From the NCBI RefSeq assembly GCF_030384885.1, contig NZ_CP128613.1: DNA of 64,000 nt; one strand, 5' to 3'. The translations under genes were made by a program, and so were the position numbers. The notes beneath the pieces were generated by a model that saw nothing but the letters and a program-made list of their open reading frames with translations, was not told the DNA's origin and made no database searches. Position 1 is the first letter of the stretch; the number at the start of each line of letters is the position of its first letter. This document shows, in pieces, positions 59,243-59,554 of this stretch. Origin of the DNA: Escherichia coli. Its GTDB lineage: Bacteria; Pseudomonadota; Gammaproteobacteria; Enterobacterales; Enterobacteriaceae.

Positions 59243-59554
59243 CTATCGTAAACCGTTCAGTGAGTCGGACATCAAGAGCGCGGTAGCCTTTTTTAATATC
59301 GTATTTTGTTCCTCCAGTCGGCGAACCTGCTTTTCCAGCTCGCGAATACGTTGCTGTTCAGGGGTAATGGGTGTTGCAGAGGGCGCAATACCTTGGCGCT
59401 CTCGCCTGAGCTGACGTACCCAGCTCTCAAGCGTGGTAGAACCGACATTCATCGCCTCACTGGCTTGTCGATACGAATAGCCCTTATCAACAATCAGCTG
59501 TGCACATTCCAGCCTGAACTCAGGGGTGAAAGTACGTTTGGTTTTCTTGTTCAT
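59243..59554 (-). CDS. IS3-family transposase OrfA (helix-turn-helix)
   Basis: Starts [35 protein letters not shown] with AGGTGA Shine-Dalgarno; ends ...[18 protein letters not shown], closely resembling IS911-type OrfA. Confidence 0.85.

Follow-up and report, generated by a model that had tools for sequence, protein, structure and literature searches.

A probable programmed -1 ribosomal frameshift site with a degenerate downstream stimulator in an ISEc31-like insertion sequence of Escherichia coli

The window is a 64,000-nucleotide stretch of E. coli DNA (RefSeq assembly GCF_030384885.1, contig NZ_CP128613.1) that carries, on its minus strand, an insertion-sequence transposase divided between two overlapping reading frames, orfA and orfB. 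The question raised by this locus is whether the heptamer A AAA AAG near the end of orfA is a programmed -1 ribosomal frameshift site that joins the two frames into a single OrfAB transposase. The initial annotation placed this heptamer on the minus strand inside the ILKKATALL coding region near the end of orfA, and the minus strand does read AAAAAAG in phase at 59294..59288, within the context GAA CAA AAT ACG ATA TTA AAA AAG GCT ACC GCG CTC TTG ATG. The features at the site are:

59243..59554, minus strand: orfA, the helix-turn-helix regulator/DNA-binding part (open reading frame; Pfam HTH_Tnp_1)
59288..59294, minus strand: slippery heptamer A_AAA_AAG (Lys-Lys), the probable -1 frameshift site (phase, reading-frame context, conservation in relatives)
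58377..59288, minus strand: orfB-frame part of OrfAB after the slip, 303 codons and TGA (open -1 frame, rve, NF033516, RefSeq joined CDS)
59295..59297, minus strand: AUU codon in the orfB frame directly 5' of the A run, a candidate weak OrfB start (likeness to IS911)

The orfA frame runs from an ATG at 59554 to a TAG at 59245-59243 and comprises 103 codons and the stop. The first A of the heptamer is the third base of a TTA codon, and AAA and AAG are zero-frame codons of orfA, which places the heptamer in the X_XXY_YYZ phase [(heptamer start - ATG) mod 3 = 2] that tandem tRNA slippage requires. The zero-frame stop of orfA follows 16 codons past the start of the AAA codon and 14 past the AAG codon. 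The -1 frame is free of stops from 59357 down to a TGA at 58379-58377, it overlaps orfA over 59357-59243, and 303 of its codons lie downstream of the slip. A -1-frame stop after the heptamer was looked for and none occurs before that TGA, so that translation of the -1 frame from the heptamer is continuous. When the G of AAG is re-read, join(59554..59288, 59288..58377) encodes an OrfAB protein of 392 aa (89 + 303 residues). The overlapping arrangement proposed in the initial annotation is thereby borne out, as is its remark that the six-frame track under-calls the transposase, given that the track lists open reading frames of 103/115 aa and 248 aa and not the product of 392 aa.

The heptamer alone is not a significant feature of the DNA, with 22 copies of AAAAAAG in the window against 13.3 ± 3.8 expected. 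Among these 22 copies, only the one at 59294..59288 features a frameshift context, that is, a long zero-frame ORF (101 codons upstream), a nearby stop and a long -1 ORF; no other AAAAAAG site with such a context and no other copy of the element was found in the window. A scan of the element for X_XXY_YYZ motifs returned A_AAA_AAG as the only in-phase motif that passed the ORF-context filter.

The 392-aa fusion has the composition of a complete IS3-family transposase. Pfam searches of OrfAB identified HTH_Tnp_1 at residues 4-77 (E = 3e-16), HTH_28, HTH_21, and rve at residues 222-319 (E = 3.4e-28). The NCBIfam model NF033516, 'IS3 family transposase', reaches 361.9 bits, for a cutoff of 160, and extends over profile positions 1-368 of 369 and OrfAB residues 12-377. 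A DD(35)E + K signature is formed by D230, D290, E326 and K333, with a D-D spacing of 60, a D-E spacing of 36 and the lysine seven residues after the glutamate. Fused transposases align end to end and without gaps across the junction, with 59% identity for ISSba5, 58% for ISEc52 and 57% for an IS911-like copy. The features by which the IS3 family is recognized are all present, namely overlapping ORFs with orfB at -1, the HTH and DDE/rve domains, the match to the family model, and TG...CA repeats with a 3-4 bp duplication. The exact 392-aa protein is held at NCBI as WP_205559685.1, and a member of its 90% cluster, labelled 'IS3-like element ISEc31 family transposase', is 96% identical to the orfB-frame part over 301 aa. 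ISEc31 is an ISfinder name for an IS3-family element that, as here, occurs in E. coli; the likeness was judged by this labelled protein, and the element is called 'ISEc31-like'. In the literature ISEc31 is listed only as a match in mobile-element typing of E. coli genomes.

The boundaries of the element are defined by its ends and by the flanking DNA:

58369..59626, minus strand: complete ISEc31-like IS3-family insertion sequence of 1258 bp, 5'-TGTAGTGG...CCACTACA-3' (inverted repeats, empty site, identical copies)
59627..59629, minus strand: left 3-bp ATT of the target-site duplication, as read on the minus strand (flank comparison, empty site)
58366..58368, minus strand: right 3-bp ATT of the target-site duplication, as read on the minus strand (flank comparison, empty site)

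The inverted repeats TGTAGTGG...CCACTACA are imperfect, with TG...CA termini and arms that are ~80% complementary over 30 nt. The empty site, in which the flanks are joined with a single ATT, was recovered in other E. coli genomes with 100% identity over 221 nt, and this confirms both the element boundaries and the ATT duplication. DNA copies with 100% identity are present in many E. coli genomes at many sites, and in 1648 of 5426 complete genomes a copy spans 80% or more of the element's length; two sublineages are distinguished, at ≥99% and ~92% DNA identity. The identical copies, the intact target duplication and the known empty site together indicate that transposition was recent. E. coli strain 2013C-4282 has an identical copy at the corresponding position, with glpD on one side and a hypothetical gene on the other; RefSeq/PGAP annotates this copy as 'IS3 family transposase' with the note 'programmed frameshift' and a two-piece CDS of 1178 nt, corresponding to 392 codons and a stop minus one base.

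The insertion spot (58300-58368 and 59627-59700) is the spacer between two REP/PU-like palindromes (BIME), just 3' of glpD, and on both sides of the IS there are weak Rfam matches to two REP-associated families, ES036 and naRNA4. A preference for insertion into REP/BIME repeats, as for IS1397, was considered and rejected, as the other copies that were examined are without REP flanks. In a Mixta mediterraneensis relative (L017) the right flank of the IS adjoins a long (GTTGT)n-like tandem repeat. A separate observation concerns the 5' end of orfA, where positions 59436-59558 of the minus strand match Rfam RF01387, 'isrC Hfq binding RNA', over the full 123-nt model (145 bits, E = 1e-36). The match begins 4 nt before the orfA ATG and spans approximately the first 40 codons of orfA. 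In Salmonella Typhimurium, IsrC has been described as a 288-nt sRNA from the envF-msgA interval (PMC2330248), and the match suggests that the IsrC family originated in the 5' portion of an ISEc31-like element or of its remnant. It was the only strong match in an Rfam search of 58000-60000, in which no frameshift-element family was matched.

The conservation of the slip site was determined in 88 related loci, drawn from plasmids and from a one-per-species set of genomes, with the homologous position examined in 84. This position is A_AAA_AAG in 75 of the 84 and A_AAA_AAA in 4, and the remainder are visibly decayed or truncated. The four A_AAA_AAA loci (L021, L031, L058 and L067) are marine, from Photobacterium, Vibrio and Shewanella. 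The heptamer columns of the 75-sequence alignment are invariant or nearly so, while the flanking codons vary, and most intact relatives have the same 16 codons between the slip site and the orfA stop and the same 303-codon orfB frame. The two-frame layout and the heptamer are kept down to ~55% protein identity in Enterobacterales, Vibrionaceae, Shewanella, Marinicella, Photobacterium and others. A_AA.A_AA.G is one of the three most efficient, shift-prone heptamers in E. coli, and in a tally of IS1- and IS3-family heptamers 72% are either this one or A_AA.A_AA.A (PMC4066793).

Several loci depart from this pattern, among them the truncated copies L016, L018 and L022. In L022:965-1151 (Photobacterium marinum) the IS homology covers query residues 90-392, starting directly past the heptamer position, and the upstream sequence is unrelated (...CCATTAG, followed at the junction by GCTACCGC...), so that the truncation of L022 coincides almost exactly with the frameshift site. 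In Salmonella enterica subsp. arizonae, L020:1230-1416 reads TAAAAAA-GCT, with the A6G run one base short, and is truncated at residue 321; judged from its sequence, it is a decayed copy, and the mutation would fuse or shift its two frames.

Three other explanations for the two frames were weighed against this evidence. The first holds that the slip is transcriptional, with RNA polymerase adding one A in the A6 run to give an in-frame mRNA on which ribosomes do not slip, and it appears very improbable. The run contains 6 A only, whereas productive transcriptional slippage in IS elements involves runs of ~9 or more A/T. An added A would, from the sequence, give the same K-K-G junction, and some IS elements do use transcriptional slippage (Baranov et al. 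2005, cited in PMC4066793); however, conservation is specific to A_AAA_AAG in the zero-frame phase: 75 of 84 relatives have G at position 7, and this G matters to the re-pairing of tRNA-Lys and not to polymerase slippage. Additionally, the IS911 signal has the same heptamer and acts by ribosomal frameshifting according to papers cited in PMC4066793.

Comparably slight is the probability that recoding plays no part, with separate OrfA and OrfB proteins acting together, OrfB being initiated from the AUU at 59297-59295 or a TTG at 59123, and the heptamer being incidental. The ORF list does contain a TTG-initiated ORF of 248 aa, and, like IS911, the element has an orfB-frame AUU immediately ahead of the A run; an AUU codon is named as the OrfB initiation codon in titles of IS911 papers in the reference list of PMC4066793. 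By this analogy, it is possible that the AUU at 59297-59295 functions as a weak OrfB start. However, no ATG, GTG or TTG is found in the orfB frame ahead of TTG 59123, and an ORF from that TTG would begin roughly 57 residues into the orfB-frame part and so lack a stretch that is conserved in relatives. The heptamer is also invariant though its neighbouring codons vary, and both the family model and the relatives match the fusion without a gap. A decayed pseudogene, in which a recent 1-nt indel separated the frames and no programmed signal exists, is scarcely credible: decay is seen in L020, with its shortened run, and in the truncated L016, L018 and L022, but both frames are intact in the window copy, identical copies are present at many sites, and the same layout and heptamer are common to relatives down to 55% identity in Enterobacterales, Vibrionaceae, Shewanella and others.

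The interpretation of the heptamer as a programmed -1 ribosomal frameshift site of an ISEc31-like, IS911-related IS3-family element, at which a slip yields the OrfAB transposase, is supported, and it is given a probability of about 0.93. It draws on the anatomy of the element, the intact fusion protein, the conservation of the motif and the existing database annotation described here. Most ribosomes translating orfA would pass A AAA AAG in the zero frame and terminate 14 codons past AAG, producing the 103-aa OrfA. A minority would slip back by one base as two lysyl-tRNAs move from AAA-AAG to AAA-AAA, and these ribosomes would go on in the orfB frame to produce the 392-aa OrfAB. This protein is the predicted transposase, with an N-terminal HTH DNA-binding domain joined to a DDE catalytic domain, and the frequency of the slip would set the OrfAB/OrfA ratio and so limit the rate of transposition. 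The ribosomal nature of the slip and the roles of the products are inferred from experiments on IS911 and IS3.

IS911/ISEc52, with an experimentally characterised A_AAA_AAG signal, is among the closest known systems. It shares with the window copy the heptamer and its phase, the following sequence GCUACCGCGCUCUUGAUGUC, the 16-codon distance to the orfA stop and the orfB-frame AUU ahead of the A run. The architecture, at 1250-1258 bp, also matches, and the OrfAB proteins are 57-58% identical without gaps. ISSba5 and the marine gammaproteobacterial relatives (Vibrio, Photobacterium and Shewanella) have OrfAB proteins with 55-62% identity and the same heptamer position and ORF geometry; unlike the window copy, they keep a three-way junction with compensatory changes, and four of them use A_AAA_AAA.

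The initial annotation also proposed looking for a downstream stem-loop stimulator, and this is the one expectation that the window copy does not bear out. The candidate elements around the site are:

59228..59280, minus strand: vestige of a three-way-junction stimulator, with a CGCUC...GAGUG closing stem (5-bp remnant) and a spacer of 7 nt (-6.5 kcal/mol, z = +1.4)
59214..59236, minus strand: local 9-bp hairpin GACUGAGUG-ACAGC-CACUCAGUU, starting 51 nt after the heptamer
59310..59315, minus strand: SD-like GGAGGA, a candidate upstream stimulator, ending 16 nt before the heptamer

RNAalifold returned only two trivial pairs on the 75-sequence alignment, as the register of the basal-stem bulge differs between subgroups, and it was replaced by per-sequence constrained folding and explicit pair counting. 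Relatives outside the ISEc31 clade feature a branched hairpin of 57-61 nt (at times up to 71 nt) that starts 4-6 nt past the heptamer in most of them. Their best local structures range from -12.9 to -24.2 kcal/mol with a mean of -18.0 (n = 62), and the z-scores against shuffles for three of these relatives are -2.6 to -3.4. A three-way-junction model on the alignment pairs 84% of cells, versus 32-47% when the partners are slid, and contains 8 covarying pairs in which both sides change, including a basal pair that is U-A in 42 sequences and G-C in 19. The branched hairpin matches the three-way junction that has been described for IS911 (PMC5009743). In IS911-like copies this junction is 57-59 nt long, lies 5-6 nt downstream (9 nt in L005, which has a 3-nt insertion) and has a stability of -19.5 to -21.3 kcal/mol with z-scores of -2.6 to -3.0. 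Three loci (L053, L056 and L069) contain a 12-nt in-frame insertion directly 3' of the basal stem (alignment columns 107-118).

In the ISEc31 clade (L002, L009-L020 and L037; 59228-59280 in the window) the basal stem has diverged in its 3' arm, as have the two internal hairpins, and the mean best local ΔG is -9.9 versus -18.0 kcal/mol in the 62 other relatives. The three-way junction of the IS911-related group is not preserved in the window copy. Its best local structure, at -6.5 kcal/mol and z = +1.4, is less stable than shuffled sequence, and only the 5-bp closing-stem remnant is left in comparison with the IS911-like copies. Of the 23 junction pairs of the family, 15 can form, and every helix is interrupted. 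Downstream structures are expected to have a stability of 7.6 kcal/mol (PMC4066793) and to start 4-10 nt after the motif; the window copy falls below the stability rule, and by folding and pair counting it has no three-way junction starting within that interval.

Two other downstream structures were considered and rejected. The 9-bp hairpin at 59214-59236 is too far away under the 4-10 nt rule to act as a lone stimulator, and most ISEc31-clade copies are without it and have CACACGG in its place. Long-range closing stems of the window copy, which leave a spacer of 5-7 nt, span 120-133 nt and reach -32 to -35 kcal/mol, formally satisfy the empirical rules of PMC4066793. They were not counted as a stimulator, however, given that the 138-nt region is no more stable than shuffles (z-score of +0.44) and that the changes within the clade are wobble-compatible only, with no double compensations.

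Upstream of the heptamer, GGAGGA is a possible stimulator. The stimulatory spacing for SD-like sequences is 6-17 nt (PMC4066793), and counted to the second base AGGA ends 16 nt, GAGG 17 nt and GGAG 18 nt before, at the outer edge of this interval; the SD-like sequence ends ~16 nt upstream in the window copy versus ~11 nt in IS911-like copies. The conservation of GGAGGA is not independent evidence because it also encodes Leu-Glu-Glu. With a degenerate junction downstream and GGAGGA at or past the edge of the 6-17 nt interval, frameshifting may be inefficient in the window copy. A tentative reading, on the doubtful side, is that the ISEc31 clade has lost the three-way-junction stimulator, and that A_AAA_AAG operates there either unstimulated at a low basal level or with another, undescribed stimulator, for which the distal GGAGGA and the 120-133-nt closure are candidates. 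If this is true, the unstimulated slip of the ISEc31 clade would be a naturally attenuated transposase switch.

The frameshift site is of an ordinary kind, belongs to an insertion sequence that is common in E. coli, and is already annotated as programmed. For annotation, it matters that the transposase is the 392-aa frameshift fusion, which RefSeq already encodes, and not the six-frame ORFs of 103 aa and 248 aa. The wider point is that a successful multi-copy IS clade keeps its slippery heptamer and lets the downstream stimulator decay, and the ISEc31 clade is thus a natural test case for the amount of stimulation that an IS3-family element needs.
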